From Vicinamibacterales bacterium (lineage in GTDB: Bacteria > Acidobacteriota > Vicinamibacteria > Vicinamibacterales > 2-12-FULL-66-21): 64,000 bases of DNA. The DNA is taken from positions 1,039-65,038 of the forward strand of contig DASTBU010000126.1 of NCBI GenBank assembly GCA_035711845.1, read 5' to 3'. Within the stretch, counting starts at the first letter, position 1. Each line of letters opens with the position of its first letter. The translations under genes and the position numbers were made by a program. The notes below the pieces were generated by a model. The model was not told the origin of the DNA. It saw only the letters and a list, made by a program, of their open reading frames with translations, and did not search any database. Below are positions 1,537 to 58,944 of this stretch, piece by piece.

Positions 1537-3261
1537 ATGCTGAGGAGCGCCATGGCCAAAAAGGCAGCCAATCTCGTCTACGGCGTCGACGACACGCCCC
1601 CGTTGACGGTGGCGGCTCTGCTCGGGCTCCAGCATGTGGTCGTGTTGACATCCGGTTGGGTGCTCGTGGTGGTGATCGTCACCACCATCGGCGGCACGCC
1701 GGAGGAGGTCACCAACGTCCTGCGGATGTCGATGATTGCCTCGGGCATCGCGACGATCGTGCAATCCCTTCACCAAAGCCCGGTTGGTTCCGGATTCCTG
1801 TGTCCCATCGGCAGTGGGCCTGCGTACGTCTCCGCGTCGATTCTGGCGGGCAGGACCGGGGGCTTGAGTGCGATCTTCGCGATGACCGCCCTCTCCGGCT
1901 TCTTCGAGGGGCTTCTCGGCCGAATCGTGCCGCGACTGCGTGCGCTGTTTCCGCCCGAAGTCACCGGGCTGGTGGTGACGATGGTGGGTATGGAGCTCGT
2001 GGCGCTCGCGTGCCCCAGGTTTCTCGGGTTTCAAGAGGGTGGCACGAGCCTGACAGGAAGCGTCGCCGCGGTGGCGACGGTGACGTTGGCCGCGATGATC
2101 GGACCGACGGTCTGGGGTAAGGGCAAGCTCAAGCTGTATCCCGTGCTCGTGGGTCTGTTCGTGGGATATGTTCTCGCCTATTTCGCCGGCGCTCTTCATA
2201 CCGACCGTCTGCAGGACATGTTCGACGCGTCGATGTTCAGCCTGCCGCGGAAGGTGCAGGGGGGCTGGTCCCTTCATCTCTCGCTGCTGCCCGCCTTCCT
2301 CATCGCCAGCCTGGCCTCGACGCTGAAGAGCGTCGGCGACCTGACCCTCTGCCAGAAGATCAACGACGCCGATTGGAAGCGCACCGACATGCAGTCGGTC
2401 AGGGGGGGCATTTATGCCGGTGCGATCGGCACCGGCTTGTCGGGTCTGCTCGGCGGCATCGGCCAATCGACTTTCTCGAGCAACGTCGGCCTGTCGCTCG
2501 CCACCGGGGCCACCAGCCGGTCCATCGCCGTTGCCTGCGGCATACTGATGATCCTCCTGGCCTTTCTACCCAAGCTCGCGGCCTTCTTCGCCGTGATGCC
2601 GGATCCCGTGATGGGCGCCATTCTCGTTTACGTCGCCTGCTACATGATTCTCGCGGGCATTCAGGTCATCACGTCGCGGATGCTCGACGCCCGCCGGACC
2701 TTCGTCGTCGGCATCGCCCTGATCTTCGGCCTGAGCGTCGACATGGTGCCCGGACTGTACCGCGACGTGCCCGACGCCATTCAGCCTCTCTTTTCGTCGT
2801 CTCTGTCGATTTCTACGGTGCTGGTCGTGCTGCTGAACCTGCTCTTTCGTATCGGCATCACCAAACGCCGGTCCCTGGAGCTGACGCCCGGTGTCGACGG
2901 TTCGCAGAAGATCTTCGAGTTCATGGAGACGCAGGGGAGCATCTGGGGAGCGCGCCGCGAGGTGATCATGCGTGCGACAGCGGCGCTCAACGAATTCGTA
3001 GAGTCCGCCGCCGCCCTGGGCTTCGTGAGAGGTAGCGCCGTGGCCGACGTCAGCTTCGACGAGTTCAATCTCGACCTGGACATTCGATACGCCGGAACGC
3101 TGATGGAATTCCCGAGCCGGCGGCCGACCGCAGAGGCGCTGCTCGCGGACGACAGCGGCGTCGCCGGCCTTTCCGGTTTTCTGATTCGCCAGTACGCCGA
3201 CCGCGTCAAGACGGAGCACGAGAACGGCCGGTGTCGAATCTCGATGCACTTCGACCATTGA
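1537..3261 (+). CDS. NCS2 (xanthine/uracil) family nucleobase permease with C-terminal RsbW/SpoIIAB-like degenerate GHKL domain
   Basis: 574-aa ORF. The first ~440 aa are polytopic and match the nucleobase:cation symporter-2 pattern (GLQHVVVL..., SNVGLSLATGATSR). The last 129 aa (2872-3258) are soluble and align by eye with the RsbW-like protein at 6549-7010. The start could instead be the ATG at 1552. Confidence 0.8.
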   Translation: MLRSAMAKKAANLVYGVDDTPPLTVAALLGLQHVVVLTSGWVLVVVIVTTIGGTPEEVTNVLRMSMIASGIATIVQSLHQSPVGSGFLCPIGSGPAYVSASILAGRTGGLSAIFAMTALSGFFEGLLGRIVPRLRALFPPEVTGLVVTMVGMELVALACPRFLGFQEGGTSLTGSVAAVATVTLAAMIGPTVWGKGKLKLYPVLVGLFVGYVLAYFAGALHTDRLQDMFDASMFSLPRKVQGGWSLHLSLLPAFLIASLASTLKSVGDLTLCQKINDADWKRTDMQSVRGGIYAGAIGTGLSGLLGGIGQSTFSSNVGLSLATGATSRSIAVACGILMILLAFLPKLAAFFAVMPDPVMGAILVYVACYMILAGIQVITSRMLDARRTFVVGIALIFGLSVDMVPGLYRDVPDAIQPLFSSSLSISTVLVVLLNLLFRIGITKRRSLELTPGVDGSQKIFEFMETQGSIWGARREVIMRATAALNEFVESAAALGFVRGSAVADVSFDEFNLDLDIRYAGTLMEFPSRRPTAEALLADDSGVAGLSGFLIRQYADRVKTEHENGRCRISMHFDH

Positions 3262-3313
3262 CCCGGATTTCGATTGAGTCGACCCTGCATGCAGCCACAT
3301 CGAGCACGATGAG

Positions 3314-4603
3314 ATGACCCGAAGCATGCCCGCCAGCCGGCGCCGGGCGCTCGTCGCGTCCGTTGTTGTCGTCGCCTCGGTCCTCGGCCTGCTGATCGGC
3401 CTCGGACGTGGCCGGCCGGAGCCAATCCGCGTTGGCGTGCTGCACTCGCTCTCGGGCACCATGGCCATCAGCGAGCGCCCGGTGGTGGACGCGACCCTGA
3501 TGGCGATCGACGAACTGAACGCGGCCGGCGGTCTGCTCGGTCGTTCCGTCGAGGCGGTCGTCCGCGACGGCGCGTCGGATCCCGCTACCTTCGCGCGGGA
3601 GGCCGAACGGCTGATCGCTGTCGATCGTGTGGCGGCGACATTCGGCTGCTGGACCTCCGCCGTCCGTAAACAGGTGAAGCCGGTGGTCGAGCGGCACGGT
3701 CATCCCCTCTTCTATCCCGTGCAGTACGAGGGTCTGGAGGCCTCCCCCTTCATCATCTACACGGGTGCGGCCCCGAACCAGCAGATCATCCCGGCCGTCA
3801 CCTGGGCGCTCGACAACCTCGGCCGGCGCTTCTTCCTCGTCGGGTCCGACTACGTGTTTCCGCACACGGCCAGCGCCATCATCCGCCACGTCACGAGCGC
3901 GCTCGGCGGCGAGGTCGTGGGCGAGGCGTATGCGCCGCTGGGCGCCCGCGACATGGCTGGGATCGTCGACGAGATCGGGCGCGCACGGCCCGACGTCATT
4001 CTCAACACCATCAATGGCGACAGCAACGCCGCGTTCTTCCACGCGCTGCGTCAGGCCGGCGTCACGCCGGCGCAGATCCCGACGGTGTCGTTCAGCGTCG
4101 CCGAGACTGAACTGGCGACGATCGGCGTGAAGGACTTCGTGGGCGATTACGCGGCCTGGAACTACTTTCAGTCGGTCGACTCGGAAGAGAACCGGCGGTT
4201 CGTCGAGGGGCTGCGACGCCGGACCGGCGCCACTACGGCATCCGACCCGATGGAGGCCGCGTATCTGGGTGTGCACCTCTGGGCGCGGGCCGTGCACGAG
4301 GCCGGGGCGACCGAGACGACGGCAGTGCTCCAGTCGCTGGCCGATCAGAGCTTCGCTGCCCCCGAAGGGGTGGTCTACGTCGACGCCCTCACCCACCACA
4401 CGTGGAAGACCGTACGGATCGGGCGGATACGGTCCGACGGCCAGTTCGACATCGTCTGGGATTCTCGAAGACCGGTCCGCCCCGTCCCTTTTCCCGCGTA
4501 CCGGACCCGCGCCGAATGGGACGCCTTCCTGACCGCTCTCTTCAATCAATGGGGCGGGCGCTGGGTCAATGAAGGGGCGACGGAGACGGGGAGCCGGCCG
4601 TGA
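3314..4603 (+). CDS. UrtA/AmiC-like periplasmic ligand-binding protein (urea/short-amide type, Peripla_BP_5/6), membrane-anchored
   Basis: 429 aa. N-terminal anchor ALVASVVVVASVLGLLIGL, then VGVLHSLSGTMAISE, FGCWTSAVRK, FYPVQYEG, YTGAAPNQQ, NTINGDSN and AAWNYF, which are characteristic of the UrtA/AmiC family. Its stop overlaps the next gene's start (GTGA at 4600-4603). Confidence 0.8.
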   Translation: MTRSMPASRRRALVASVVVVASVLGLLIGLGRGRPEPIRVGVLHSLSGTMAISERPVVDATLMAIDELNAAGGLLGRSVEAVVRDGASDPATFAREAERLIAVDRVAATFGCWTSAVRKQVKPVVERHGHPLFYPVQYEGLEASPFIIYTGAAPNQQIIPAVTWALDNLGRRFFLVGSDYVFPHTASAIIRHVTSALGGEVVGEAYAPLGARDMAGIVDEIGRARPDVILNTINGDSNAAFFHALRQAGVTPAQIPTVSFSVAETELATIGVKDFVGDYAAWNYFQSVDSEENRRFVEGLRRRTGATTASDPMEAAYLGVHLWARAVHEAGATETTAVLQSLADQSFAAPEGVVYVDALTHHTWKTVRIGRIRSDGQFDIVWDSRRPVRPVPFPAYRTRAEWDAFLTALFNQWGGRWVNEGATETGSRP

Positions 4604-6549
4604 AACGCTCGCACAGGCTCTCTGTGCAGCTCAGCGTGTGGTTCGTCGCCATCGCGCTGGTGCCGCTGGCCATTGTGACCGTGTCGACGTATCTGGCCGC
4701 CGAGCGCGCCCTGCGCAGCCAGGTGACGACCGGCCTCTACGCGATCGCCCGGCGGCAGGCCAATGAGATTGCGACCTACGTGCGCGAGCGCGAGCAGAAC
4801 GTGGCGACGCTCTCGCGCATGCCCGGCACGATTGACGCGCTGGAGGAGCTCGGGCGCGCGTTCGCCGGGGACGGCCAGGGACCGGCACTCGACACGCTCG
4901 ACCGGCAGTATCGCCCGTTCCTCTCCTACTATCAGGAAGCCTTCGGCTATGACGACCTGTTGCTCGCCCTGCGCGACGGCAGCGTGGTGTTTTCGGCCCG
5001 GCGCCGGCAGGCCGTAGGGACCAATCTGCGCGCCGACCCCCACCGGACGACGGGTCTCGGCGTGGCGTTCGATCGCATCCGGACCCTGCTCGAGATCGAT
5101 TTCTCCGACTTCGCACCGTCGGGCGAGGGAGATGTCGCGGCGTTCCTGGCGGCGCCCGTGCTCGAGGAGAACACGCTGCTCGGTGTCGTGATTCTCCGGC
5201 TGAACAACAGCGAGATCCTCCGGATCCTGTCCGACCACACCGGACTCGGCCAGACGGGCGAAACGTTGCTCACGCAGCGAATCGACGACGACGCGGTCAT
5301 CGTGGTGCCGCTGCGTCACGGAGCCGATGCGCCGTTCACGCGCCGTATCGCGCTCGGCAGTCCATTCGGCATCCCCGAGCAGCGCGCCGTGCAGGGCTCT
5401 CGCGGCGAAGGTATATCGGTGGATCATCAGGCGCAGCGGGTCCTGGCCGTATGGCGCTACGTGCCCGCGCTGGGCGCCGGACTGGTCGTGAAGATCGGCA
5501 TTGCCGAGGCGTTCGCCCCGATCCGGTATCTCACGCTCCTGGCGCTCGGTCTCGCGGCCACGACCGTCGGGCTGGTCGTCCTCGCCGCGCGCTCGGTCGG
5601 CCGGTCGATCTCCGGTCCGGTCGTTACGCTGACGGCCGCCACGGCGCATATGGCCGATGGCGATCTGACCCGGCGGGTCGACGTCACGGCGCGAAACGAG
5701 ATCGGCCAGCTCGCCCGCGCCTTCAACCAGATGACCGAGCGGCTCGCCCGATCGATCGAGGAGCTGAGGGAATCGACCGCGGCGAAGGAGCGGATCGAGA
5801 GCGAGCTGAGGGTCGCCCACGATATCCAGATGGGCATCCTCCCGAAGATCTTTCCACCCTTTCCCAACCGGCCCGAGTTCGATCTGCACGCCATGCTCGA
5901 GCCTGCCAAGGCGGTGGGCGGGGATTTCTACGATTTCCTGCTGTTCGACGACGAGGAGCTCTACGTCGTCATCGGCGACGTGTCGGGAAAGGGTGTACCC
6001 GCGTCGCTGTTCATGGCCGTCACGCTGACGCTCTTCCGATCGTCGGTGAGGCGCGGTCTGGGTCCCGGGGCGCTGCTGACCAAACTCAACAGGGACCTGT
6101 GCGTGGACAACGTGTCGTCGCTCTTCGTCACGGTCTTCTGCGCGCGCCTCGACGTGCGCAACGGCGCGTTGGTGTTCTCCAACGGCGGACACAATCCCCC
6201 GTATCATGTGGCGGCGGGCGGCGTGTCGCCGCTGCCGCTGCGCGGCGGACCCGTGCTCGGCGTGATCGACCAGACGATATACGCCGAGGATTCCGTGACG
6301 CTGGCGCCTGGCGACACGCTCGTGCTGTTTACCGACGGCATCACCGAAGCCACGAACTCGGCAGACGAGCTGTACGGGGACGATCGGCTCCGCGCCTCGC
6401 TCGACGGCCACCGCGCGGCGCGCGCCGCTGGCATCGTGAGCGAAACGGCGGCCGATGTGCGCCGTTTCGCCGGCGGCGCCCCCCAGTCCGACGACCAGAC
6501 GATGCTGGTGGTGCGATACCACGGCCCTGGTGACGTGAACCGACGCTGA
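4600..6549 (+). CDS. Membrane-bound Cache-HAMP-PP2C (SpoIIE/RsbU-like) serine phosphatase
   Basis: 649 aa. Order of parts: TM helix, ~270-aa extracytoplasmic Cache-like domain, second TM, HAMP (EIGQLARAFNQMTERL), then PP2C/SpoIIE motifs (AKAVGGDFYDF, VIGDVSGKGVPASLFM, FTDGITEA, QSDDQTMLVV). Confidence 0.85.
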   Translation: MKRSHRLSVQLSVWFVAIALVPLAIVTVSTYLAAERALRSQVTTGLYAIARRQANEIATYVREREQNVATLSRMPGTIDALEELGRAFAGDGQGPALDTLDRQYRPFLSYYQEAFGYDDLLLALRDGSVVFSARRRQAVGTNLRADPHRTTGLGVAFDRIRTLLEIDFSDFAPSGEGDVAAFLAAPVLEENTLLGVVILRLNNSEILRILSDHTGLGQTGETLLTQRIDDDAVIVVPLRHGADAPFTRRIALGSPFGIPEQRAVQGSRGEGISVDHQAQRVLAVWRYVPALGAGLVVKIGIAEAFAPIRYLTLLALGLAATTVGLVVLAARSVGRSISGPVVTLTAATAHMADGDLTRRVDVTARNEIGQLARAFNQMTERLARSIEELRESTAAKERIESELRVAHDIQMGILPKIFPPFPNRPEFDLHAMLEPAKAVGGDFYDFLLFDDEELYVVIGDVSGKGVPASLFMAVTLTLFRSSVRRGLGPGALLTKLNRDLCVDNVSSLFVTVFCARLDVRNGALVFSNGGHNPPYHVAAGGVSPLPLRGGPVLGVIDQTIYAEDSVTLAPGDTLVLFTDGITEATNSADELYGDDRLRASLDGHRAARAAGIVSETAADVRRFAGGAPQSDDQTMLVVRYHGPGDVNRR

Positions 6550-7010
6550 TGCACGAAGCGCTGTCCATCACGATTCCCAATCGGTTGGCCGAGATCGAGA
6601 AGGCCGCCCGGCTCATCGAGACGTTCGGCGAGACGCACGGCTTGCCGCCGGAGGTCGTCTTCAACTTCAACCTCGCGCTGGATGAGATCTTGACGAACAT
6701 CATCTCCTACGCTTACGACGACGAAGCGGACCATCGCGTCAAGGTCCACGTGACGCTCGATTGCGACGTGGTCTCGGTGCGGGTGGAAGACGACGGCCGC
6801 GCGTTCAATCCGTTGGACGCCCAGCGGCCCGATATCCGGCTCGGCATCGACGAGCGCCCGATCGGCGGGCTGGGCGTACACATCGTGCGGTCCGTGATGG
6901 ACGCGCTCGAGTATCGCAGGGAGAACGGCCGTAACATCTTCATCATGAGCAAGCGGACACCGAGAGAAGCGGGATCGGCTCCTTCCACCGCCGAGCCTGG
7001 AGTCGACTGA
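6549..7010 (+). CDS. Anti-sigma-type serine kinase (RsbW/SpoIIAB-like, HATPase_c_2)
   Basis: 153 aa. N-box LDEILTNII, G1 VEDDGRAFNP and G2 GGLGVHIV are intact. The ATG overlaps the stop of the phosphatase gene (TGATG at 6547-6551). Confidence 0.8.
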   Translation: MHEALSITIPNRLAEIEKAARLIETFGETHGLPPEVVFNFNLALDEILTNIISYAYDDEADHRVKVHVTLDCDVVSVRVEDDGRAFNPLDAQRPDIRLGIDERPIGGLGVHIVRSVMDALEYRRENGRNIFIMSKRTPREAGSAPSTAEPGVD

Positions 7011-7041
7011 GCGGGAGATCGTCTGCAGAGAGGAGCGGCGT

Positions 7042-7377
7042 GTGGAGATTTACAGCGCAGAGGAAGCCGGCGTCATGATCATCAGCGTGAAGGGCCGGCT
7101 CGACGCCGCCAGCGCGGGCGGCCTCGAGGGCGAGGTGCGGCGCCAGGTGGACGCCGGATCTCGACGGCTGGTCCTCGACCTGACGGACCTAACGTACGTC
7201 AGCAGCGCCGGGATCCGTGTCTTCCTGCTCGCGGCCCGCCAGCTCCGCGGGCTTGGCACGCTCCTGCTGGCGGCGCCGTCGCCGATGGTCCGGCAAGTCT
7301 TCGACATCGCCGGCGTCGATGCATTCGTCGACGTTTGCGAGACGACTGCTGCCGCGGTCGACAGGCTCCGGAGCTGA
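7042..7377 (+). CDS. STAS-domain anti-sigma-factor antagonist (RsbV/SpoIIAA-like)
   Basis: 111 aa. VKGRLDAASA...LVLDLTDLTYVSSAGIRVFL carries the conserved phosphorylatable Ser context (SSAG). Confidence 0.85.
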   Translation: MEIYSAEEAGVMIISVKGRLDAASAGGLEGEVRRQVDAGSRRLVLDLTDLTYVSSAGIRVFLLAARQLRGLGTLLLAAPSPMVRQVFDIAGVDAFVDVCETTAAAVDRLRS

Positions 7378-8617: not shown

Positions 8618-8824
8618 GCCGTGCAGGAGTGCCGCCAGCTTCGCGGCGGTGTCCTGTTGCATCGACGGCAGGACGTGTGCGTAGATCCCCAGCGTCATCT
8701 CGACTTTGGAGTGACCGAGTCGACGCTGAACACGTGCGCCGAGACGCTGGCTGACAGCCTTCAACGTCGCGACGGTATGCCGCGCCTTCGAGATGTCTTG
8801 CGAGGGTTGTAACTCCTCGTTCAC
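8618..8824 (-). pseudogene. Tyrosine recombinase (phage-type integrase) C-terminal fragment
   Basis: RHTVATL...LGHSKVEMTLGIYAHVLPSMQQD matches the conserved RHT...LGHS...Y.HV catalytic C-terminus (Arg, His, Tyr). There is no N-terminal or core-binding part, and the protease gene starts at 8846. Confidence 0.55.
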
Positions 8825-8845
8825 GTTCGCAGGGACGATTACCTG

Positions 8846-10495
8846 ATGTTCCGTGCATTAGTCATCGCGACGCTCATCATCTCCACAGGAGCTTGGCAAG
8901 ACGACGGGCCGCGCATTCTCCAGATCAGGATTGTGCTGCCCGACGCGGACGGAAGACTGACACCGGTACCTCGGCACCGGCTCCTCATCAGCGACAATCC
9001 GGTCACCGCCTCACCGCGGCTCGTGATCACGGACCTGGACGGCACCGCGACGGTCCGGTTGCGTCCCGGAAGCTATACGGTCGAGTCCGACCTCGCAGTC
9101 GCCCTTCACGGCAAGTCGTACTCGTGGACGGAGCAGGTGACGGTCGCTGCCGGCAAGGACGCGTCGCTCGAGTTGACCGCCGAGAACGCGCAGGTCGAGG
9201 CCGCAGCGGGCTCGACGACAGGCTCCGCGCCCGCAACGGGGTCCGACGCGGCCTTCTTCCTCAGGAAATGGCAGGACAGCGTCGTCGCACTCTGGACGCC
9301 GACGACGCGCGGGTCGGGATTCGTGATCGATGCGAACGGGCTGATTGTCACGAACCAGCGGATCGTCGGCGACGCGAAGTCCGTGGAGGTGCAGTTCACG
9401 CCGCAGCTCAAGGTGGCGGGGAGTGTGCTGGCGGCTGATGCCGAGCGCGACGTAGCGGTGATCTGGATCGCCGCGACGACGATCGCCGAACTCCGTCCGG
9501 TGCCTCTCCCATGCAATCCCGGGGCACGCACTGCCATCGAGAACGGCCAGGAGTTGTTTGCGCTCGGGGCCTCGCTCCAGCCGCCGAAGCGCATGTCCTC
9601 AGGCATCGTGAGCCGCGTGGACTCTCACAGCATCATGCTGGACCTCGGTATCGCGCGCGGCAGCGCCGGTGGACCGGTTTTCTCGTCCGGTGGCGATCTC
9701 GTGGGAATCACCACCGTCACCGGCCAGGACGATGGTGACGCACTGGGCGGGACCCGCGTGGTCCACAGCGGGCACGCGTGCGACGTCGTTGCCGCCGCGA
9801 AGCAGAAGATGAGTGCTGCAGCCCCTCCCGCCAGCACACCCCTGCCCGTCGAGCCGGGGCGGCCATTCCCGGTCAGCGCGTTGAAGGCGGCCGCCGAGCG
9901 CCGCGCCGGCAGCCTGAACCCATACCAGATCCAGGCGTCCGGCTTCGACGTGGCCTTCATTACACCCGTGCTGACGTATGGGGCTCAGTATCAATTCGAG
10001 CAGATGCGGCGCCGGCGCACGACCAGCAAGGACACGCGCACAGCGCAGCCGGATCCTCCCACGAGGCGGGCGATCATGGATTTCGCGAACTGGTCCGAAT
10101 ATGTCTGGGAGTTTCCGCCGGTGCTCCTGGTCCGCGTGACGCCCAGGATGGCCGAGGGCTTCTGGACGACGGTCGCCCGCGCCGCCGCCCGCACGCAGGG
10201 TGTCGCCCTTCCGCCGATGAAGCGCTACAAGCCGGGCTTCTCCCGGATGCAGGTATTCTGCGGCAGCGCAGATGTGACGCCGATCCATCCCTTCAAGCTC
10301 GAACGCCGTATCTCGGAGAGCGACGCGATCTTCGAAGGTCTTTACGTTCTCGACCCGGGAGCGCTCGGGCCGCACTGCGGCGCCGTGAAGCTCGTGCTCT
10401 TCTCAGAGGACGAGCCGGAGAAGGGGGACACACAGGTCGTCGATCAGCGAGTGATCCAGCAGATCTGGGACGACTTCGCGCCCTATCGGAGATAG
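8846..10495 (+). CDS. Secreted trypsin-fold (S1C/HtrA-like) protein, two catalytic-triad positions substituted in a by-eye alignment, with N-terminal Ig-like domain and ~230-aa C-terminal domain
   Basis: Signal peptide MFRALVIATLIISTGAW. Protease-fold motifs are GSGFVIDANGLIVTNQRIV (His position occupied by R), DVAVIWI (Asp kept) and GSAGGPVF (Ser position occupied by A). Confidence 0.7.
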   Translation: MFRALVIATLIISTGAWQDDGPRILQIRIVLPDADGRLTPVPRHRLLISDNPVTASPRLVITDLDGTATVRLRPGSYTVESDLAVALHGKSYSWTEQVTVAAGKDASLELTAENAQVEAAAGSTTGSAPATGSDAAFFLRKWQDSVVALWTPTTRGSGFVIDANGLIVTNQRIVGDAKSVEVQFTPQLKVAGSVLAADAERDVAVIWIAATTIAELRPVPLPCNPGARTAIENGQELFALGASLQPPKRMSSGIVSRVDSHSIMLDLGIARGSAGGPVFSSGGDLVGITTVTGQDDGDALGGTRVVHSGHACDVVAAAKQKMSAAAPPASTPLPVEPGRPFPVSALKAAAERRAGSLNPYQIQASGFDVAFITPVLTYGAQYQFEQMRRRRTTSKDTRTAQPDPPTRRAIMDFANWSEYVWEFPPVLLVRVTPRMAEGFWTTVARAAARTQGVALPPMKRYKPGFSRMQVFCGSADVTPIHPFKLERRISESDAIFEGLYVLDPGALGPHCGAVKLVLFSEDEPEKGDTQVVDQRVIQQIWDDFAPYRR

Positions 10496-10637: not shown

Positions 10638-10724
10638 TGGTGCGGAAGAGAGGATTTGAACCTCCACGACCTTGCGGCCACAAGCTCCTGAGGCTTGCGC
10701 GTCTGCCAGTTCCGCCACTTCCGC
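10638..10724 (-). tRNA. tRNA-Leu (anticodon CAG), class II with long variable arm, CCA encoded
   Basis: The reverse complement folds by hand. Acceptor GCGGAAG/CTTCCGC, anticodon stem CAAGC/GCTTG, loop CTCAGGA, variable arm GGCCGCAAGGTC, T-loop TTCAAAT, 3' ACCA. Confidence 0.9.
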
Positions 10725-12065: not shown

Positions 12066-13808
12066 GTGGCTGTCAGGCGCGGTGTCGTGCTCGTTATCGT
12101 TCTCATCCTGGCTGCCGTTGCCATCTCGGCGACCGGCCTTGTCCTCATGGCGCTGATGGTCGGGCGGGGACCGCAGGTCGCGGGCAACTCGACGCTCGTT
12201 CTCGAGATCAGCGGCGACCTTCACGAGATCGAGCCGGCAGGCGTCTTCGATCAGTTCTTCGAGCCGCCGCCCACGGTCCGGTCCGTTACCGAGTCGCTCC
12301 GCAAGGCCAGAGTGGACCGGCGTGTCTCGAGCGTGGTGATCAGGCCCACGGGCACGGCAGCGCTCTGGGGCAAGGTCCAGGAAATCCGCGATGCGATCGT
12401 CGAGTTCAAGCAGTCCGACAAGCCGATCATCGCGTACCTGGAGTTCGGCAACGACCAGGCCTACTACCTGGCGAGCGCCTGCGACAAGGTGTTCCTGCTG
12501 CCCAGCGCGTCGCTCGACCTGACCGGCATCGCGAATTACGAGCTCTTCCTTCGCGGCACCCTCGACAAGATCGGGGCCTACCCTGACGCGCTGCACATCG
12601 GCGACTACAAGACGGCCTCGAACACGTTCACCGAGAAGACGTTCACTCCCGAACATCGCGAGATGGCCGAGTCGCTGAACACCGATCTCTACGAGCAGCT
12701 CATTCGAGGGCTCGCCGACGGCCGCCAGAAACCTGAGACCGAAGTGCGGCAATTGATCGATCACGGCCCGTATCTGCCCGAGGACGCGGTGCGCGTCGGC
12801 CTCGTCGACGACCTGGCCTATGAAGACGAGATCGATGACAAGGTGGCGCTCGGGCGGGGACAGCTCAGGGCCCTGCGCCAGAGCGACTACCGGCGGATCA
12901 GCCCGGCCTCGCTGGGCCTCGGAACCGGCGAGAGAATCGCGGTCATCTACGCGGTCGGCATCATCTCGAGCGGCGAGAGCCGCAACGACTCGGCCGGCCA
13001 GACGGTCGGGTCCGACACGCTCGTGGGATACCTGCGCAAGGCACGAGCCGACAATTCGATCAGGGCAATCGTCCTGCGCGTGGACAGCCCGGGCGGATCG
13101 GCAATCGCGTCGGACGTCATCTGGCGCGAGGTCATGTTGACGCGGGACACGAAGCCGGTGATCGCCTCGATGTCCGACGTGGCGGCCTCGGGCGGGTACT
13201 ACATCGCCATGCCGGCGCACGCGATCGTCGCCCAGCCCTCGACGCTCACGGGATCGATCGGCGTGGTGATGATCAAGTACGTGCTGGATGGCACGCTCGA
13301 CAAGCTCGGGGTGAACATCGAAAGCGTCAGCCAGGGACGCTACGCGCAGATGTACTCGCCGGTGCGCCCGTTTTCGCCGGAGGAACGCGCGCGGGTCGAA
13401 CAGTTGATGCAGGCGACCTACGACACGTTCGTCGAGAAAGCGGCCGCGGGCCGCAACACGACCCCCGAGCGCATCGATGCCGTGGGACAGGGCCGCGTCT
13501 GGACCGGACGGCAGGCCAAACAGCTGGGGCTGGTGGACGAGCTCGGTGGGCTCGATCGCGCGCTCGCGCTCGCCAAGCAGCGCGCGAACATCCCGCAGGA
13601 CGAAGAGGTGGAGCTCGTCGTGTTTCCGCCGAAGCGGTCGATCTACGAGGTCATCGCCGATCCGTTCGGGCCGTCGGATGGCGCATCGGCGCTCGGGGCG
13701 CTGCTGGGCGTCAGGGAGGCGCGCGTCGTGAACACCCTGACCGCACCGCTGCGCGTCTTCCGCCGCGGCGAGCCGCTCGCGATCATGCCGAACGTGTTCG
13801 TCAGATAG
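12066..13808 (+). CDS. sppA: Signal peptide peptidase SppA, 67K type (two S49 domains)
   Basis: 580 aa. GTG start with GGGAGG 7-8 nt upstream. N-terminal TM, duplicated ClpP/S49 fold, SMSDVAASGGYYIA and GSIGV motifs. Confidence 0.9.
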   Translation: MAVRRGVVLVIVLILAAVAISATGLVLMALMVGRGPQVAGNSTLVLEISGDLHEIEPAGVFDQFFEPPPTVRSVTESLRKARVDRRVSSVVIRPTGTAALWGKVQEIRDAIVEFKQSDKPIIAYLEFGNDQAYYLASACDKVFLLPSASLDLTGIANYELFLRGTLDKIGAYPDALHIGDYKTASNTFTEKTFTPEHREMAESLNTDLYEQLIRGLADGRQKPETEVRQLIDHGPYLPEDAVRVGLVDDLAYEDEIDDKVALGRGQLRALRQSDYRRISPASLGLGTGERIAVIYAVGIISSGESRNDSAGQTVGSDTLVGYLRKARADNSIRAIVLRVDSPGGSAIASDVIWREVMLTRDTKPVIASMSDVAASGGYYIAMPAHAIVAQPSTLTGSIGVVMIKYVLDGTLDKLGVNIESVSQGRYAQMYSPVRPFSPEERARVEQLMQATYDTFVEKAAAGRNTTPERIDAVGQGRVWTGRQAKQLGLVDELGGLDRALALAKQRANIPQDEEVELVVFPPKRSIYEVIADPFGPSDGASALGALLGVREARVVNTLTAPLRVFRRGEPLAIMPNVFVR

Positions 13809-15959: not shown

Positions 15960-16216
15960 GCATGCGGGCGCACGGACGAGCGGCCTCGCGCCGATAAGGT
16001 ACGGGCCGGGTGCGGAACCCGCTTGGCGGTCAACCTTTACGCAGGCTGTGGGCTCGGATCGTCCCGCAACGGGCCGGTTTCCGCGGTTCGGATGTGGTAA
16101 TATTTACGTTGAATAGAAGCACTTACGAGGATTCGCACATTCCAAACGGAACCCAGAGCCGATTGACCCGGACCGACCGGAACGGGCGCGGCCGCGGTCG
16201 ATCGAGCAGGAGAAGT

Positions 16217-17266
16217 GTGCCGGCGGTCCGGACGGATCTGGCCGAACGCCTCCGCCCGTTGCAGACAACGCTCCGGCGTACGCTGGCGCGGGCCGACGTT
16301 CTCGCTGACATGACGCGCGTGGTCAACGCCAGCCTCGAGCCCGAACGGGTGGCCGAGGCGCTGGCGGCAGCCGTCTCCGCGTGGGTGCCCGCCTCGGGGT
16401 GGCTCGTGCTCGCCATCGACGATGGCGGCCGGGTTCGGACGATGGCGGCGAAGGGCCTGACGACGGTGCTGGAACGCTCGGCGCAGGCGGTGGGGGACTG
16501 GGTGCTCCAGAGCGCGGAAGTGTTCGCGAGCGCGGATCTCGCCTCCGACACGCGCGTCGTACGGCTCGACGTGGAGCCCGCGGCCGCGATCGGGTTCCCG
16601 CTGGCGTGTCGCGGGCGCACGGTGGGCGCGCTGATTGCCATCGACCGTGCACCGGCGACGCGACAGCCGCGATTCGCGCCGGCGACGCTGGCCGCGCTGC
16701 GGTCGGCGCTCGAGCCCGGGGCGATCGCCCTCGACAACGCGCTGCGCGTGCAGCGCGCCGAGGCGCTGTCGGTGACCGACGATCTGACGCAGTTGTACAA
16801 CTCGCGGTATCTGTCGCAGGTGCTGCGGCGGGAGACGAAGCGGGCGATTCGCAGCAGCCGCCCGCTCTCGCTGCTGTTCATCGACCTCGACGGCTTCAAG
16901 TCGATCAACGACTCGCACGGGCACCTGTTCGGCAGCCGGGCACTGGTCGAAGCGGCGGGCGTGATTCGCGCCAGCGCGCGCGAGACCGACGTCGTGGCCC
17001 GGTTCGGCGGCGACGAGTTCGCGCTGGTGCTGCCCGACACCGGCACGGATGGAGCCGTCTACGTCGGGGAGCGCATCCGTGAGCGCCTTGCCGCACACAG
17101 GTTTCTGGAACGGGATGGGCTGGGCATAGCGCTCACCGCATCTGTCGGGGTTGCGACGCTGCCCGCGTCCGCCACGACGGCAGAGGGGCTGATCCAGGCC
17201 GCCGATCAGGCCATGTACGTCGTCAAGGATCGCGGCAAGAACGGCATCAGGGTCGCCGGGGCATAG
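16217..17266 (+). CDS. GAF-GGDEF diguanylate cyclase
   Basis: GGDEF domain with TDDLTQLYNSRY, FIDLDGFKSINDSHGH and RFGGDEFALVL. The N-terminal half looks like a GAF domain. Proposed GTG start at 16217 follows AGGAGA; the ORF is open from 16010. Confidence 0.8.
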   Translation: MPAVRTDLAERLRPLQTTLRRTLARADVLADMTRVVNASLEPERVAEALAAAVSAWVPASGWLVLAIDDGGRVRTMAAKGLTTVLERSAQAVGDWVLQSAEVFASADLASDTRVVRLDVEPAAAIGFPLACRGRTVGALIAIDRAPATRQPRFAPATLAALRSALEPGAIALDNALRVQRAEALSVTDDLTQLYNSRYLSQVLRRETKRAIRSSRPLSLLFIDLDGFKSINDSHGHLFGSRALVEAAGVIRASARETDVVARFGGDEFALVLPDTGTDGAVYVGERIRERLAAHRFLERDGLGIALTASVGVATLPASATTAEGLIQAADQAMYVVKDRGKNGIRVAGA

Positions 17267-17275
17267 GAGTCGTTT

Positions 17276-18301
<1,026 letters not shown>

Positions 18302-18302
18302 T

Positions 18303-18344
18303 GCCGGGGCTCGGGTCTTGGTGTTCGGGACTCGGGAACTCCGC
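18303..18344. repeat. Heptamer array (CTCGGGA-like, ~6 units)
   Basis: GCCGGGG CTCGGGT CTTGGTG TTCGGGA CTCGGGA ACTCCGC. These units are the reverse complement of those at 18411-18501. Confidence 0.7.
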
Positions 18345-18410
18345 TTGGATCGTAAGGATGAGTAACGTCGTTCCGCGGGTAGGGCCTGCGTGCGAATGCG
18401 CCGAGACGCG

Positions 18411-18501
18411 AGTCCCGAGCCCCGAATCCCGAGCTCCGAGCCCCGAGTCCGGAGTTCCGAGCCCCGAATCCCGAGTCCCGAGCTTCGAATCCCGAGCACC
18501 G
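18411..18501. repeat. Heptamer array, 13 units of AGYCCCG-type (TCCCGAG family)
   Basis: AGTCCCG AGCCCCG AATCCCG AGCTCCG AGCCCCG AGTCCGG AGTTCCG AGCCCCG AATCCCG AGTCCCG AGCTTCG AATCCCG AGCACCG. The array ends 2 nt before the proposed mreC GTG start. Confidence 0.9.
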
Positions 18502-18503
18502 AA

Positions 18504-19379
18504 GTGTTAGACATCCGCCAACGCACTGGCTACCTCTTCCTCGGCGTCATGCTGGGACACCTGATCCTGATTTCGGCCCAGGTGCAGTCGAAGACCGGTG
18601 TGCCGGTGCTCGAGAGCGTGACGTTCGGCGTGTTTTCGCGCGTGCAGCAGGCGACTGCGTCGGTCGTCAACGCCGTCCGCGGCGGCTGGGGCAACTACGT
18701 CGATCTGAGGGACGTCCGCGGCCAGAACGAATCATTGCGCCGGCAGCTGGCCGAGTTGGAGGTGCGGTTGCAGGAGCAGCGCGCGCTGGCCGAACGGGCG
18801 GGCCGGCTGCAGCAACTGATGGGCCTGCGGGCCAGCACGAGCCTGCAGACCATCGCAGCCGAGGTGATCGCCGCCAATCCCATCGCCGACATGTTGACGG
18901 TGACGATCGATCGCGGATCGGCCGACGGCGTCAGGCCGGACATGGCGGTCATCGCCCCCAAGGGGGTCGTCGGACGGGTGATTGGGCCGGTGTCGGCACA
19001 CGCGGCGCGCGTGCAGCTCATTATCGACCGGGATGCTGCGGTTGGCGCGCTGACGGAACGGACGAGGGCCGGCGGCGTCGTCCTGGGCGTGCAGGACAGG
19101 TCCAGGGCGCCGCTGCGGATGGATCTCGTGTCGAACCTCTCCGACGTGCAATCCGGTGACGTCGTGGTGGCGTCAGGGATCGACGGAATCTACCCGAAGG
19201 GGTTCGTCATCGGTACCGTGGAATCGTCGGAACCGGGTCCGCTGCTGAACCGCGTCATCACGGTACGGCCCGCGGTGGATTTCTCGGGCCTCGAAGAAGT
19301 GCTGGTGGTGCTCGTGCCGGCGCGCAGCGCGATGGCCGCCGATGCAACGGCGCCGTCCAAGCGGGGTGAGTCGAAGTGA
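18504..19379 (+). CDS. mreC: Rod shape-determining protein MreC
   Basis: Proposed GTG at 18504 gives VLDIRQRTGYLFLGVMLGHLILIS (TM), a coiled-coil (LRRQLAELEVRLQEQ) and a beta-barrel C-terminal part (GDVVVASGIDGIYPKG). The longer ORF from 18390 only translates the heptamer array. Confidence 0.85.
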   Translation: MLDIRQRTGYLFLGVMLGHLILISAQVQSKTGVPVLESVTFGVFSRVQQATASVVNAVRGGWGNYVDLRDVRGQNESLRRQLAELEVRLQEQRALAERAGRLQQLMGLRASTSLQTIAAEVIAANPIADMLTVTIDRGSADGVRPDMAVIAPKGVVGRVIGPVSAHAARVQLIIDRDAAVGALTERTRAGGVVLGVQDRSRAPLRMDLVSNLSDVQSGDVVVASGIDGIYPKGFVIGTVESSEPGPLLNRVITVRPAVDFSGLEEVLVVLVPARSAMAADATAPSKRGESK

Positions 19380-19891
19380 GAGCGGCCGGTGTGCTGCTGG
19401 CGCTGACCGGAGCGCTGGCGCTGCAGACAACGCTGGCGGGGCTGTCGATCGGCGGGGTGGCCGTCAACCTGGTGCTCGTGGCCGTGGTCTACGCGGCGCT
19501 GGCCTTCGGACCGGTCATGGGGCTTCTCGCTGGCAGCGCGGGTGGACTGGCGCAGGACGCGCTGGCGGGCGGCGTCCTCGGCATCGGCGGGTTCTCGATG
19601 ACGCTCGTCGGGTTCATGGTTGGCGTGCTGGGCGCGCAGTTCATCGTCTCCCAGCCGTTCCCGCGGCTCATCATGTTCGTGGGAGCGACCCTGGTCCACG
19701 AGCTGTGTTTTCAGGCGCTGTACTCGCTGGCGGAAGTCCGGGCGTTCCGGTTCGACTACACGGCCGTGCTGACGCAGGCCATGGTGAACGGGGTGATCGG
19801 GATCATCGCGTTTCAGATCGCCGAGGCCGGCCCCGAGTTGCTGGCGCGGCGCCGCGCGAGAGGCGCCAGCCTCAGCAGGAGGCGGTTCTAG
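19376..19891 (+). CDS. mreD: Rod shape-determining protein MreD
   Basis: 171-aa polytopic membrane protein. It overlaps the mreC stop by 4 nt and sits at the conserved position in the mreBCD operon. Confidence 0.75.
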   Translation: MRAAGVLLALTGALALQTTLAGLSIGGVAVNLVLVAVVYAALAFGPVMGLLAGSAGGLAQDALAGGVLGIGGFSMTLVGFMVGVLGAQFIVSQPFPRLIMFVGATLVHELCFQALYSLAEVRAFRFDYTAVLTQAMVNGVIGIIAFQIAEAGPELLARRRARGASLSRRRF

Positions 19892-19892
19892 G

Positions 19893-20020
19893 GTTCACGG
19901 ACCCGACGGTGCCACGAACGGACCACGGTCGTCACGATGATCGGATGACACGATGAGCACGATGGACCTTATTGGGAACGAGAACTCATCGAGTCATCCG
20001 ATCATCGTGGCCATCGTGCC
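19893..20020. repeat. CACGGAC/CACGATG-family repeat element forming a 25-bp hairpin
   Basis: 19933-19957 (CACGATGATCGGATGACACGATGAG) pairs with 19985-20009 (CTCATCGAGTCATCCGATCATCGTG). I checked this base by base: 24 of 25 pairs, with a 27-nt loop. Further CACGRNC units lie 5' of it. Confidence 0.85.
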
Positions 20021-20084
20021 TGCCGTGAGCCCGTTTGTCGGACCGCTGCCGCCTGGCGTCGAGAACTGAAGAGATGGTCGACCC

Positions 20085-21983
20085 ATGAGCACGCACTTTG
20101 CCCCCGACGATCGCCGGAATCTGACGACCCGGCTGTCGCTCCTGCAGGGCGCCATTGCCGTCGTCTTCGCCCTGCTGGCGATCGGGTTCTGGGTGTTCCA
20201 GGTGGCACAGCACCAGAAGTTCCGGGAGATGGCCGAGAACAACCACACGCGGCGGCTGCCGATGCCGGCGCCGCGCGGGATTCTCTTCGACAGGCACGGT
20301 ACTGTCCTGGTCGACAACCAGTACATGTACAACATCACGCTCGATCGCGAGCAGTCGAGGAACATCGGCGAGACCCTGCGGGTGCTCGAGCGGGCGACAG
20401 GCGTGCCCGAGGCGGATCTGCGGGAGACCCTGAACCGTCGTCGCGGCGAGCCGAGCTACAGGCCGCTGGTGCTCATCGAGAACGCGACGGAAGCACAGGT
20501 CATCGCCATGCTCGCCCGCAGGTCCGACCTGCCTGGCGTGAGTTTCGAAAATCTGCCGACCCGTAAGTATCCGGCCAGCGACATGGCCGCGCATCTCTTC
20601 GGGTATGTGAGCGAGGTGAACGAGGCGCAGCTGTCGCGGCCGGAATACGAGGGGCTCGAGGCAGGCGCGCGCGTCGGACAGGCGGGTGTCGAGCAGGCCT
20701 ACAACAAGCTCCTGATGGGCACCGACGGAGGGCGCGCGGTCGCCGTCAACAGCCTCGGCCGCGAAATCTTCGAGGTAGACAAGGACTACCCGCTCGAGGG
20801 CCGTCGCCTGCAGCTGACGATCGACGCCGACGTACAGCGTGCCACGGAGGAGGGATTCCGCCACTTCAAGTACAACGGGGCCGCGGTGATCGTGGATCCC
20901 CGTTCGGGAGAGATCCTGTCGCTCGTGAGCCTTCCGGCTTACGACCCGAACGAGTTCGCGCTCGGGATCGATCCGGCCACGTGGCGTTCGTTGACGACCG
21001 ACCGGCTGCGGCCGCTACAGAACCGCGCCCTGCAGGGGAGGTACTCGCCCGGGTCCACGTTCAAGATCGCCGTGGCCGTTGCCGCGCTCGAAGAAGGCGT
21101 CATCACCCCGGAGCGGCAGGTGTTCTGCCCCGGTGGCGCGAATTTCTACGGCCGCTTCTTCAATTGCTGGCTGGCCGGCGGCCACGGTAGCGTCAACATG
21201 CGCCACGCCCTGGAGCGGTCGTGCAACACCTACTTCTATACGATCGGCAACATGCTCGGCGTCGACAGGATTCACAAGTGGTCGTCGCTGCTCGGGCTGG
21301 GAGAGCCGAGCGGCATCGATCTGCCCAACGAGGTCCGTGGCCTCGTGCCGTCGACCGAGTGGAAACAACGGGTGATGAAGGAGAAGTGGTATCCCGGCGA
21401 GACGATCTCCGTGGCGATCGGGCAGGGACAGGTCAGCGTCACGCCACTGTCGATGGCGGTGATGATGATGACGGTCGCCAACGGCGGCACGCGCTACACG
21501 CCGCACGTGCTCAAGGCCGTGGACGAAGGGAAGGGATGGACGCCTGTTCCGGCGCCGCCCCCGCAGTCTGTGGCCCATATGAAGCAGTCGACGGTTGACG
21601 CGCTGCACGAAGGGTTGTGGATGGTCGTGAACGCCGCCGGCACGGGCGGACGCGGCAAAATCGTCGGGTACAACGTGGCCGGGAAGACCGGCACCGCGCA
21701 GGTCGTGTCGAACCAGGGCAGGGCAGCCGCCGCCCGCGCGGGCGTGGACGTCCGCGATCACGGCTGGTTCGTCTTCTTTGCACCGCACGACAAACCGGAG
21801 ATCGCCGGCGTCATCTTCGCCGAGCATGCGGAGCACGGTTATCTCGGGGCGCCCATCGCGAAGTACGCGATGGAGACGTATTTCGCGAAGAAGGAAGGAC
21901 GGCCGCTCCCGTCGCTTCAGACGCCGGCCCCGCCGGTGATTGCCGCAACGACCGCGACGGCGACACCGGGCCAGAACAGGTGA
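20085..21983 (+). CDS. mrdA: Penicillin-binding protein 2 (elongasome transpeptidase)
   Basis: 632 aa. N-terminal TM, PBP dimerisation domain, and the transpeptidase motifs STFK (PGSTFKIAVAV), SCN (ERSCNTYF) and KTG (AGKTGTAQV). Confidence 0.9.
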   Translation: MSTHFAPDDRRNLTTRLSLLQGAIAVVFALLAIGFWVFQVAQHQKFREMAENNHTRRLPMPAPRGILFDRHGTVLVDNQYMYNITLDREQSRNIGETLRVLERATGVPEADLRETLNRRRGEPSYRPLVLIENATEAQVIAMLARRSDLPGVSFENLPTRKYPASDMAAHLFGYVSEVNEAQLSRPEYEGLEAGARVGQAGVEQAYNKLLMGTDGGRAVAVNSLGREIFEVDKDYPLEGRRLQLTIDADVQRATEEGFRHFKYNGAAVIVDPRSGEILSLVSLPAYDPNEFALGIDPATWRSLTTDRLRPLQNRALQGRYSPGSTFKIAVAVAALEEGVITPERQVFCPGGANFYGRFFNCWLAGGHGSVNMRHALERSCNTYFYTIGNMLGVDRIHKWSSLLGLGEPSGIDLPNEVRGLVPSTEWKQRVMKEKWYPGETISVAIGQGQVSVTPLSMAVMMMTVANGGTRYTPHVLKAVDEGKGWTPVPAPPPQSVAHMKQSTVDALHEGLWMVVNAAGTGGRGKIVGYNVAGKTGTAQVVSNQGRAAAARAGVDVRDHGWFVFFAPHDKPEIAGVIFAEHAEHGYLGAPIAKYAMETYFAKKEGRPLPSLQTPAPPVIAATTATATPGQNR

Positions 21984-21992
21984 GGCCCGACG

Positions 21993-22034
21993 GGAAACTG
22001 GAAACTGGAAACTGGTAACTGGAAACTGGTAACT
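21993..22034. repeat. Heptamer array (GGAAACT/GGTAACT)x6
   Basis: Six exact 7-nt units fill the whole space up to the rodA GTG at 22035. There is no inverted partner nearby. Confidence 0.9.
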
Positions 22035-27677: not shown

Positions 27678-28316
27678 CTATCTTTTTTCTGCGAGCAGCG
27701 CCCGCAGCTTCATCCGTGCCTTGTGTACCTGCGATTTCGACGTCCCTTCGGCGACGCCCAGAACCTCCGCCACCTCGCGGTGCTCCAGCCCCTCGACATC
27801 GTGGAGCACGAATGCGGCACGGCAACCGTCCGGAAGCCGCGCCAGCGCGCGCTCGAGATCCATCTTCGTCACGGTCTGTTCGGCCAGCGTCGCGCTCGAC
27901 GGATCCGGCAATCCCGCGTCGTCGTCCAGGGCATCCGTGACCTGACGGGACCGGCCGCTCCGGCTCCGCAGGTGGTCCAGGCACAGGTTCGTGGCGAGCC
28001 GATACAACCACGTGCCGAGCGCCGACTCCCCGCGGAACGTGTCCAGCTTCCGGTGGGCCGCGAGGAAAATCTCCTGCAATAGATCTTCGGCGTCGGCCGG
28101 GTTGCCGACGAGCCGCAGCGCCACGCTGTACAGGCGCCCGGCATGGAGCCGGTACAGCTCTTCGAACGAACCGAGATCGCCCCGGCGGCAGCGTTCGACC
28201 AGGGTCAGCTCGTCCTGCCGTCCTGCGGGCGCATGCGCGCGCCCTGCCGCCGCGGGATGCACTGTAACCTTAGACGTCCCCATGCCCAGTTCGCGTTGCC
28301 GCCCGGCCCATTCCAT
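27678..28316 (-). CDS. ECF (sigma-70 family group 4) RNA polymerase sigma factor
   Basis: Region 2 (FEELYRLHAGRLYSVALRLVGNPADAEDLLQEIFL, WLYRLATNLCLDHLR) and region 4 (VLHDVEGLEHREVAEVLGVAEGTSKSQVHKAR). The start is uncertain (28316 or 28283). Confidence 0.85.
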   Translation of the reverse strand: MEWAGRQRELGMGTSKVTVHPAAAGRAHAPAGRQDELTLVERCRRGDLGSFEELYRLHAGRLYSVALRLVGNPADAEDLLQEIFLAAHRKLDTFRGESALGTWLYRLATNLCLDHLRSRSGRSRQVTDALDDDAGLPDPSSATLAEQTVTKMDLERALARLPDGCRAAFVLHDVEGLEHREVAEVLGVAEGTSKSQVHKARMKLRALLAEKR

Positions 28317-28325
28317 CCCGTTGGT

Positions 28326-58789: not shown

Positions 58790-58944
58790 GAGTTCGCGCC
58801 TGGGTGCCAGAAACCGGCCTGCACGGTCACATGGCGTGATCGGCGGCTGTTTGACGGGTGAGCAAGATGAGCCGGCCACTTCGATGGTAACGCCGAGAGC
58901 CGGGTTGCGCCAAGCATGAGCCGGCCCGAGACGAGACCGTCGCG

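Follow-up and report, generated by a model that had tools for sequence, protein, structure and literature searches.

An NCS2-superfamily permease with a predicted RsbW/SpoIIAB-type pseudokinase tail in a partner-switching operon

The five-gene operon

A 64,000-nt stretch of DNA from a Vicinamibacterales bacterium (assembly GCA_035711845.1, contig DASTBU010000126.1, positions 1,039–65,038) was analysed and is referred to here as the window. It carries an operon of five open reading frames (ORFs), all on the + strand and tightly joined, whose coordinates were read directly. The operon combines a permease of the NCS2 superfamily, which ends in a soluble tail, with the genes of a partner-switching system.

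The permease ORF (1537–3261, +) encodes 574 amino acids (aa). Its transmembrane (TM) core (residues 1–445; 1537..2871, +) belongs to a divergent NCS2-superfamily clade, with a lysine in TM8 in place of the canonical glutamate. Its C-terminal tail (residues 446–574 plus the stop codon; 2872..3261, +) is predicted to be a cytoplasmic RsbW/SpoIIAB-type GHKL pseudokinase domain. The second gene (3314–4603, +, 429 aa) encodes a periplasmic binding protein of the UrtA/AmiC class with an N-terminal signal or anchor segment. The third gene (4600–6549, +, 649 aa) encodes a membrane sensor phosphatase with a periplasmic Cache-like domain, a HAMP domain, and a SpoIIE-type PP2C domain. The last two genes encode a stand-alone RsbW-type serine kinase (6549–7010, +, 153 aa) with intact N-box, G1, and G2 motifs, and a single-domain STAS protein of the anti-sigma-antagonist type (7042–7377, +, 111 aa) with a phosphorylatable serine in VSSAG.

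The gap between the permease and the binding-protein gene is 52 nt, and that between the RsbW and the STAS gene is 31 nt. The stop codon of the binding-protein gene overlaps the start codon of the phosphatase gene in a GTGA (4600–4603), and the phosphatase and RsbW genes overlap in a TGATG (6547–6551). An earlier note, made from the letters of this DNA, had described five co-directional genes with these four junctions, and direct reading of the sequence gave the same coordinates throughout. The GC content at third codon positions was 0.84–0.87 in all five ORFs, which is typical for real genes of the window. A scan of the operon for promoters and terminators gave nothing informative.

The Pfam matches bore out the gene identities that the note had given (NCS2-type permease, PP2C, RsbW, and STAS). 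The permease matched Xan_ur_permease (PF00860, 1e-59, residues 27–405) and the binding protein matched Peripla_BP_5 (1.4e-156). The phosphatase matched SpoIIE/PP2C (2.8e-50, residues 451–640) and HAMP (1.2e-16, residues 333–383), together with dCache_1 at 4.8e-8 and 33 bits, which is under the gathering cut-off of 45 bits. Its best full-length NCBIfam match was SiaA, with weak similarity. The stand-alone kinase matched HATPase_c_2 (2.5e-27) and could be aligned to RsbW of B. subtilis (6m36). The STAS protein matched STAS (6.5e-19) and was over the cut-off of TIGR00377 with 63.9 bits. A PP2C phosphatase, a GHKL kinase, and a phosphorylatable STAS protein, i.e., the set of a partner-switching system, are encoded together in the operon. 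Family hidden Markov models (HMMs) found no further STAS, RsbW, or PP2C gene in the whole 64 kb window.

Fold and kinship of the tail

Residues 446–574 of the permease matched no Pfam and no NCBIfam model, although hits with E up to 1 were admitted, and a 24-sequence profile of the tail had no match among the PDB sequences. The downstream RsbW was found by direct comparison. BLASTP aligned the two over 116 columns with 23% identity (E 1e-4 for a single comparison), so that the parallel reported earlier extends over nearly the whole 129 aa of the tail. A clean HMM of 93 tails matched the RsbW of the window with E 1.5e-4. The hhalign comparison of the 93 tails with 32 syntenic RsbW kinases covered 122 of the 129 columns (E 2.4e-5, probability 75%). 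The hhalign controls were negative: the tail family aligned to STAS with a probability of 0.3%, and the comparison with PP2C gave nothing.

The AlphaFold2 (AF2) model of the tail, built from the family alignment, had a mean predicted local distance difference test score (pLDDT) of 91.5 and a predicted template modelling score (pTM) of 0.84. A Foldseek search of the PDB with this model returned anti-sigma serine kinases in all of the top 13 places, with E from 2.8e-6, probability 1.00, and TM-scores of 0.6–0.8 (maximum 0.81). These comprise SpoIIAB (1th8, 1til, 1tid, 1l0o), UsfX (8ih8, 8jzt), and RsbW (6m36, 6m37). The response regulator LvrC (9qih) took ranks 14 and 17, followed at ranks 21–23 by SiaB (6kko) and the Rv1364c RsbW domain (3ke6). 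The catalytic (CA) domains of ordinary histidine kinases ranked below SiaB and 3ke6 with much worse scores.

Four independent lines (BLASTP, HMM, hhalign, and AF2/Foldseek) indicate that the tail, as modelled, is an RsbW/SpoIIAB-type domain of the Bergerat/GHKL fold. The fold is visible only by structure and profile–profile methods, and the sequence threshold of a family model is not reached. The similarity to anti-sigma kinases, which the earlier note had proposed to check by profile search and structure prediction, was significant in structure and in profile–profile comparison, whereas the Pfam and NCBIfam models gave no match.

Catalytic residues and the putative STAS-facing surface

The tails (n = 93) and the syntenic kinases (n = 32) were compared column by column in the hhalign register, with the numbering of the window RsbW. 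Six catalytic positions were identical in all of the kinases, and the window RsbW retains each of them (E46, N50, D81, G106, G107, G109). At the N-box, Glu46 is E in 53% and Q in 45% of the tails, and Asn50 is replaced by S (35%), A (28%), or T (26%), with Asn outside the four commonest residues. The G1 Asp81 is Y in 99% of the tails. The G2 glycines are likewise replaced: Gly106 by R (37%) or A (26%), Gly107 by R (41%) or K (32%), and Gly109 by A (61%) or S (38%). Since the N-box Asn, the G1 Asp, and the G2 glycines are replaced family-wide, the Mg/ATP-binding residues are gone and the tail is classed as a pseudokinase. On these alignments, the tail is a descendant of an RsbW/SpoIIAB-type kinase in which the fold has been kept and ATP binding and catalysis are predicted to be lost. 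Two invariant motifs, WGAR (positions 25–28) and SFDEFNLD (positions 61–68), are peculiar to the tails.

In the RsbV–RsbW crystal structure, RsbW Arg23, Asp42, Lys44/Ser48, Glu49, and Tyr118 form hydrogen bonds with RsbV, and Glu49 bonds with the phosphorylatable Ser56 of RsbV (PMC7340262). These contact residues were transferred to the tail via the 6m36 alignment and the hhalign register. The Glu49 equivalent is E or Q in 98% of the tails, and the Tyr118 equivalent is F or Y in 97%. As both positions are maintained although catalysis is lost, part of the STAS-facing surface appears to be kept. The tail thus probably retains a surface for unphosphorylated STAS proteins. The maintained contact positions fit STAS docking on the tail and are no proof of it.

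The dimer interface of RsbW consists of β1 and α1 (PMC7340262). The tail model retains both elements, and therefore an RsbW-like dimer of tails would be possible beneath a dimeric transporter. NCS2 proteins, UraA and UapA among them, form dimers and have their C-termini in the cytoplasm.

Distribution and architecture of the family

An exhaustive search with a tail-only profile was performed on representative clusters at 50% identity. The tailed family comprised 877 clusters at E up to 1e-3 and 538 clusters at E up to 1e-10. Among the best 150, the full-length matches were ~543–616 aa long, and the tail domain was always at the extreme C-terminus. This constant length and position show that the architecture, a permease of ~570 aa including its tail, is fixed. 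About a dozen clusters (P0131, P0141, P0155, P0193, P0201, P0211, P0217, P0218, and others) consist of 112-aa proteins that resemble stand-alone tails. Because all of them start at the same internal Met of an FME sequence, they are probably truncated calls on fragmented or frameshifted contigs rather than a free-standing form.

In a scan that took one genome per species, 137 loci were located, and 79 of them were retrieved. The taxa of these 79 loci were taken from record titles, and taxon counts are therefore approximate. The closest relatives (70–83% identity) are in metagenome-assembled genomes (MAGs) of Binatia and of "delta-proteobacteria". Loci were also found in Vicinamibacteria, Bacillota (including cultured Sporomusa), Dehalococcoidales, Cloacimonadota, Ignavibacteriales, Verrucomicrobiota, Rokubacteria, Alphaproteobacteria, Burkholderiales (including cultured Variovorax), and Desulfovibrionaceae. 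Several further MAGs are labelled Methanothrix, Methanophagales, or Methanomicrobia. The flanks of a Methanothrix-labelled contig carry arg genes, CO dehydrogenase, and formate dehydrogenase, which are compatible with an anaerobe and not diagnostic of archaea, and no tRNAs were found in the flanks that were checked. The archaeal assignment is that of the record titles of several independent MAGs. Some other labels are dubious: "Bordetella parapertussis", "Enterobacteriaceae", and "Patescibacteria" (L050, L057, L077, L026) stand on module contigs that look Burkholderiales-like or environmental.

Two or more tailed permeases, often in tandem, were present in 14 of the 79 loci (L002, L008, L012, L032, L052, L054, L058, L061, L072, L075, L080, and others), and many loci have two or three STAS paralogues. 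These repeats hint that each STAS protein may be paired with a tail or kinase of its own.

Linkage with partner-switching genes

The neighbours of the tailed permeases were counted with HMMs built from the window proteins, to which length and envelope filters were applied. Of the 79 loci, 51 had a PP2C, RsbW, or STAS gene, and 31 had all three. In loci of at least 12 kb, the corresponding counts were 37/55 and 23/55. STAS was the most constant neighbour (46 of the 51 positive loci). It was the nearest partner-switching gene in 28 of the 51, and in 20 it was nearest, upstream, and on the same strand. It lay within 500 bp of the permease in 26 loci and was the sole such gene in 6. The phosphorylatable Ser column, in an SSAG-like motif, was kept in 65/65 associated STAS genes.

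The gene order differs between lineages. It is permease, PP2C, RsbW, and STAS in the window and its close relatives; STAS, PP2C, RsbW, and permease in the Methanothrix-labelled loci; and STAS, permease, and then the others in many Burkholderiales. An independent ENA contig with precomputed Pfam labels showed the same synteny. A linkage that survives rearrangement across distant lineages points to functional coupling. The co-occurrence of tailed permeases with PP2C, RsbW, and STAS genes, which had been put forward as a question for a neighbourhood survey, was thereby supported across very distant lineages. When the ORFs of the 79 loci were clustered all against all, no further neighbour family proved conserved, and no sigma factor family was among the conserved neighbours.

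The sensor domains of the phosphatases vary between loci (Cache, HAMP, GAF). In the closest relatives of the window locus, the sensor, PP2C, and RsbW form one polypeptide of ~780 aa (L002 10142–12475; similar in L004, L011, L013, L014, and L029). PP2C and RsbW are in the same frame, as candidate fusions, in ~11 loci and are split in ~14. In the window they are split at the homologous linker by a stop codon and a frame change (6547–6551), which may reflect either a real split or an indel of the assembly. L009 (713–2854) and L012 (2012–4156) have ORFs of ~710 aa with a weak C-terminal STAS match immediately upstream of the tailed permease. These may be SulP-type transporters; if so, STAS-fused and kinase-fold-fused transporters adjoin each other there.

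The permease core and its substrate

The permease scored 63.5 bits against the NCBIfam model NF037981 (NCS2_1), over the cut-off of 40. It was below the cut-offs of the pbuX model (254 vs. 414 bits), of the NCS2 superfamily model TIGR00801 (195.7 vs. 291.8 bits), and of the uracil permease and RutG models. In UraA, E241 (TM8) and E290 (TM10) are the substrate-binding glutamates. Residues 14–401 of the permease (~390 residues) align with UraA (8omz/3qe7), and in this alignment E241 corresponds to K264 and E290 to S315. Among 85 clade members, 72 have K and 9 have R at the TM8 position. The TM10 motif N-x-G-x-x-x-x-T-G is retained; the TM10 signature begins with S, A, P, or G in the clade, in place of the canonical Gln, Glu, or Pro.

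With a Lys or Arg conserved in TM8, a nucleobase substrate cannot be assumed for this clade. The earlier note had named a nucleobase permease; membership of the NCS2 superfamily was upheld by Pfam, whereas a nucleobase as the substrate is doubtful in view of K264, S315, and the basic TM8 residue of 81/85 clade members. We speculate that a basic residue in the binding site could mean an anionic substrate. In the databases, the tailed permeases are named "NCS2 family nucleobase:cation symporter-2", "xanthine permease XanP", or "uracil-xanthine permease family protein", and the automatic xanthine/uracil permease annotation of the clade is probably wrong on the substrate.

Subunits of the molybdopterin dehydrogenase family (MoCoBD, FAD_binding_5; xanthine/CO dehydrogenase type) and TctC-type receptors recur near the tailed permeases of Burkholderiales. 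Examples are L068 (14299–16425) and L072 (369–1268), with 5–6 further Burkholderiales loci each. These neighbours are a possible clue to the substrate in Burkholderiales.

The binding protein and the input signal

The binding protein scored 474 bits against TIGR03407 (UrtA), just under the cut-off of 492.75. Its best PDB relatives were the uncharacterised 8tg1 (416 bits), UrtA structures (327 bits), and AmiC (196 bits), and a literature search on 8TG1 found nothing relevant. No ABC transporter genes adjoin its gene. By the window-based HMM, an UrtA-like relative was present in 2 of the 79 other loci, and in none of them was it within 500 bp of the permease. In L002, the closest relative of the window locus, a transposase/integrase-like ORF (8661–9980) lies between the tailed permease and the PP2C-RsbW gene, at the position of the UrtA-like gene, and the sensor has a different N-terminus.

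Judging from this distribution, the UrtA-like gene is lineage-specific. Its product probably acts as a co-sensor for the phosphatase, and the stop/start overlap with the phosphatase gene fits such a role in this lineage. A feedback loop in which a urea-like ligand reports on purine catabolism had also been suggested. This part of the earlier proposal found no support, since the UrtA-like gene lies outside the conserved system and the phosphatase sensors vary.

Proposed mechanism and alternative explanations

We propose that the permease itself, and not a sigma factor, is the output of this partner-switching module, with the tail as the receptor for unphosphorylated STAS. We regard this as having about an even chance of being right. 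The stand-alone RsbW kinase would phosphorylate the STAS serine and thereby hold STAS off its partners. A signal received by the periplasmic Cache-like domain, in this operon probably jointly with the UrtA-like protein, would activate the PP2C phosphatase, which would then dephosphorylate STAS. Free STAS would then dock on the tail, which is probably dimeric beneath the dimeric transporter, and transport activity would change. The free kinase would reset the switch. The tail, which cannot phosphorylate STAS, would be a pure receptor in this proposal. We infer STAS binding to the tail, and likewise the direction of the transport effect, the input ligand, and the transported substrate. The broader proposal is that transporters widespread in bacteria, and probably present in archaea, are gated post-translationally by phosphorylation-dependent docking of STAS on a fused pseudokinase; we put its chance at slightly under even.

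Several points weigh against the permease as output. The survey covered tailed permeases, and the enrichment of STAS, RsbW, and PP2C genes near them is argued from the general rarity of these genes in genomes. No partner-switching gene was found within ~8 kb in 28 of the 79 loci, 18 of which have at least 12 kb of context; they include all cultured Variovorax (7 genomes) and Sporomusa (2 genomes). The tail is equally conserved where such genes are not nearby, so an intrinsic role is possible too. WGAR and SFDEFNLD, the most invariant motifs of the tail, fall outside the mapped STAS-contact positions, and the equivalent of RsbW Asp42 is Arg in 87% of the tails, a reversal of charge. The homology of the tail with RsbW leans on the structure match as well, because the hhalign probability was only 75%.

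In one alternative, which we consider doubtful, the transporter is the input (a transceptor). The tail would pair with the free RsbW via β1/α1 or compete with it for STAS, and the occupancy of the transporter by its substrate would set the level of STAS phosphorylation, with a further STAS target encoded elsewhere as the true output. RsbW dimerises through β1/α1 (PMC7340262), both of which the tail model keeps, and in 20 loci the permease has an RsbW gene no more than 500 bp away. The STAS paralogues of many loci would also suit branched signalling. The phosphatases, however, already possess sensor domains of several kinds, the usual route of input, and the conserved neighbourhood offers no other gene that could be the output. 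The neighbour found most constantly and closest is STAS, not RsbW; in six loci STAS is the sole such gene.

It is unlikely, in our view, that the tail serves the transporter alone, as a built-in structural or allosteric domain (for dimerisation or stability, like the STAS domain of SLC26, or for binding of a small ligand in the remnant pocket), with neighbours that regulate something else or are co-transcribed. The loci of Variovorax, Sporomusa, and other lineages, which keep the tail motifs with no partner-switching genes within ~8 kb, favour this explanation, as does the position of the two invariant motifs away from the known STAS contacts. The STAS/PP2C/RsbW linkage, which has outlasted rearrangements in different phyla and is unmatched by any other conserved context, speaks against it. 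So do the derivation of the tail from a STAS-binding kinase family and its retention of the Glu/Gln that contacts the STAS serine.

Flanking genes and sigma factors

The 1.5 kb upstream of the operon contain a PALP+ACT threonine-dehydratase-like gene. The ~15 kb downstream contain AHSA1-like, trypsin-like peptidase, tRNA-Leu, DAO oxidoreductase, S49 peptidase, SurA-like, and GGDEF genes and mreBCD-pbp2-rodA. The tRNA-Leu (CAG) gene is at 10638–10724 (−), between the trypsin-like peptidase and DAO-family oxidoreductase genes. A GAF-GGDEF diguanylate cyclase gene followed by the mreB-mreC-mreD-pbp2-rodA cell-shape cluster occupies 16010–23141.

No sigma factor gene was found in the operon or in these upstream and downstream flanks. 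The absence of a sigma gene in or beside the cluster, which had been remarked on before, therefore stands, and none is conserved in the 79 loci. Two extracytoplasmic function (ECF) sigma-like ORFs lie farther off in the window, one at 27681–28325 (−) and a weaker one at 58205–58948 (−), ~20 kb and 51 kb away. Sigma-70-family genes were present in 3 of the 79 loci. One is an ECF sigma gene (Sigma70_r2 + r4_2) ~550 bp downstream of the tailed permease in Sporomusa silvacetica (L018 8991–9572); a second Sporomusa genome has no such gene. The other two are ECF sigma genes ~4 kb from the tailed permease in Ignavibacteria-type MAGs (L044, L045, ~12300–12900). ECF sigma factors are normally paired with other anti-sigma classes. 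Archaea have no sigma factors, and the occurrence of the module in MAGs that bear archaeal record titles argues against a sigma factor as its output.

A tail that acts as a membrane-anchored anti-sigma factor, from which STAS releases a sigma factor encoded elsewhere, would suit the binding of sigma factors by SpoIIAB and RsbW and the ECF genes of S. silvacetica and of the window, and we consider it very improbable, given the second Sporomusa genome, the usual partners of ECF factors, the lack of a conserved sigma family, and the full module in MAGs labelled Methanothrix and other archaea. As a general explanation it was rejected, any sigma-70-family gene being found in only 3/79 loci.

Significance and comparison with known systems

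Partner switching is the textbook mode of sigma factor control, and few non-sigma outputs are known. If the proposal is true, the permeases represent a new output class, in which membrane transport is controlled directly and fast. Partner switching would here work independently of sigma factors, in a mirror image of the SLC26-STAS arrangement. The presence of SpoIIE/SpoIIAB/SpoIIAA-type genes in organisms without sigma factors, such as archaea, would find an explanation, and an unannotated domain in hundreds of clusters labelled "xanthine permease" would acquire a function. The tail would then be a natural example of a pseudokinase that has evolved as a decoy or receptor.

A full-text literature search found no description of the tailed-permease architecture. 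In a review of STAS-only proteins, the only transporters mentioned are SLC26/SulP-STAS fusions. The earlier statement that no transporter of this kind had been described agrees with the literature that was searched. The arrangement suggests a previously undescribed mode of transporter switching by protein docking.

The RsbU/RsbV/RsbW and SpoIIE/SpoIIAA/SpoIIAB systems of Bacillus have the same PP2C phosphatase, intact GHKL kinase, and phosphorylatable STAS protein, and the tail shares the fold of their kinases. Unlike them, the present module has no sigma target, and a second, dead kinase-fold domain is fused to a 14-TM-type transporter. It also occurs in MAGs labelled archaeal.

In the Sia system, the effector is a diguanylate cyclase, which is bound without a kinase-like receptor domain. 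SiaABCD of Pseudomonas aeruginosa (SiaB–SiaC structure 6kko, PMC7647112) shares with the present operon the control of a small switch protein by a PP2C phosphatase and a kinase; when free, the switch protein acts directly on an effector other than a sigma factor. SiaB also turned up in the structure search with the tail, and the phosphatase had its best full-length NCBIfam match in SiaA. In the present operon, the effector would instead be a transporter, with a pseudokinase copy of the kinase as its presumed receptor.

The NCS2 proteins share the 7+7 inverted-repeat fold with the SLC26/SulP class. SLC26/SulP transporters with a C-terminal STAS domain (PMC8256260) embody the same idea of a transporter with a cytoplasmic C-terminal partner-switching domain. 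In the tailed permeases, the fused domain is the STAS-binding kinase fold and not STAS, and the STAS protein is supplied in trans and is phosphorylatable.

Rv1364c is a soluble protein with a catalytic kinase domain that acts on SigF, and it has no transporter. This RsbU-RsbW-RsbV fusion of Mycobacterium tuberculosis (3ke6) joins partner-switching domains in one chain, as do the ~11 loci with candidate PP2C-RsbW fusions. Canonical NCS2/NAT proteins (UraA, XanQ, PbuX, UapA) share the Xan_ur_permease domain and the TM10 motif with the window permease. They have a Glu in TM8 where the clade of the window permease has Lys/Arg, and they lack its extra 129-aa domain. Partner switching with a non-sigma output is already known from Sia; what is new in the present module is a transporter as the presumed target and a pseudokinase domain as the presumed receptor.

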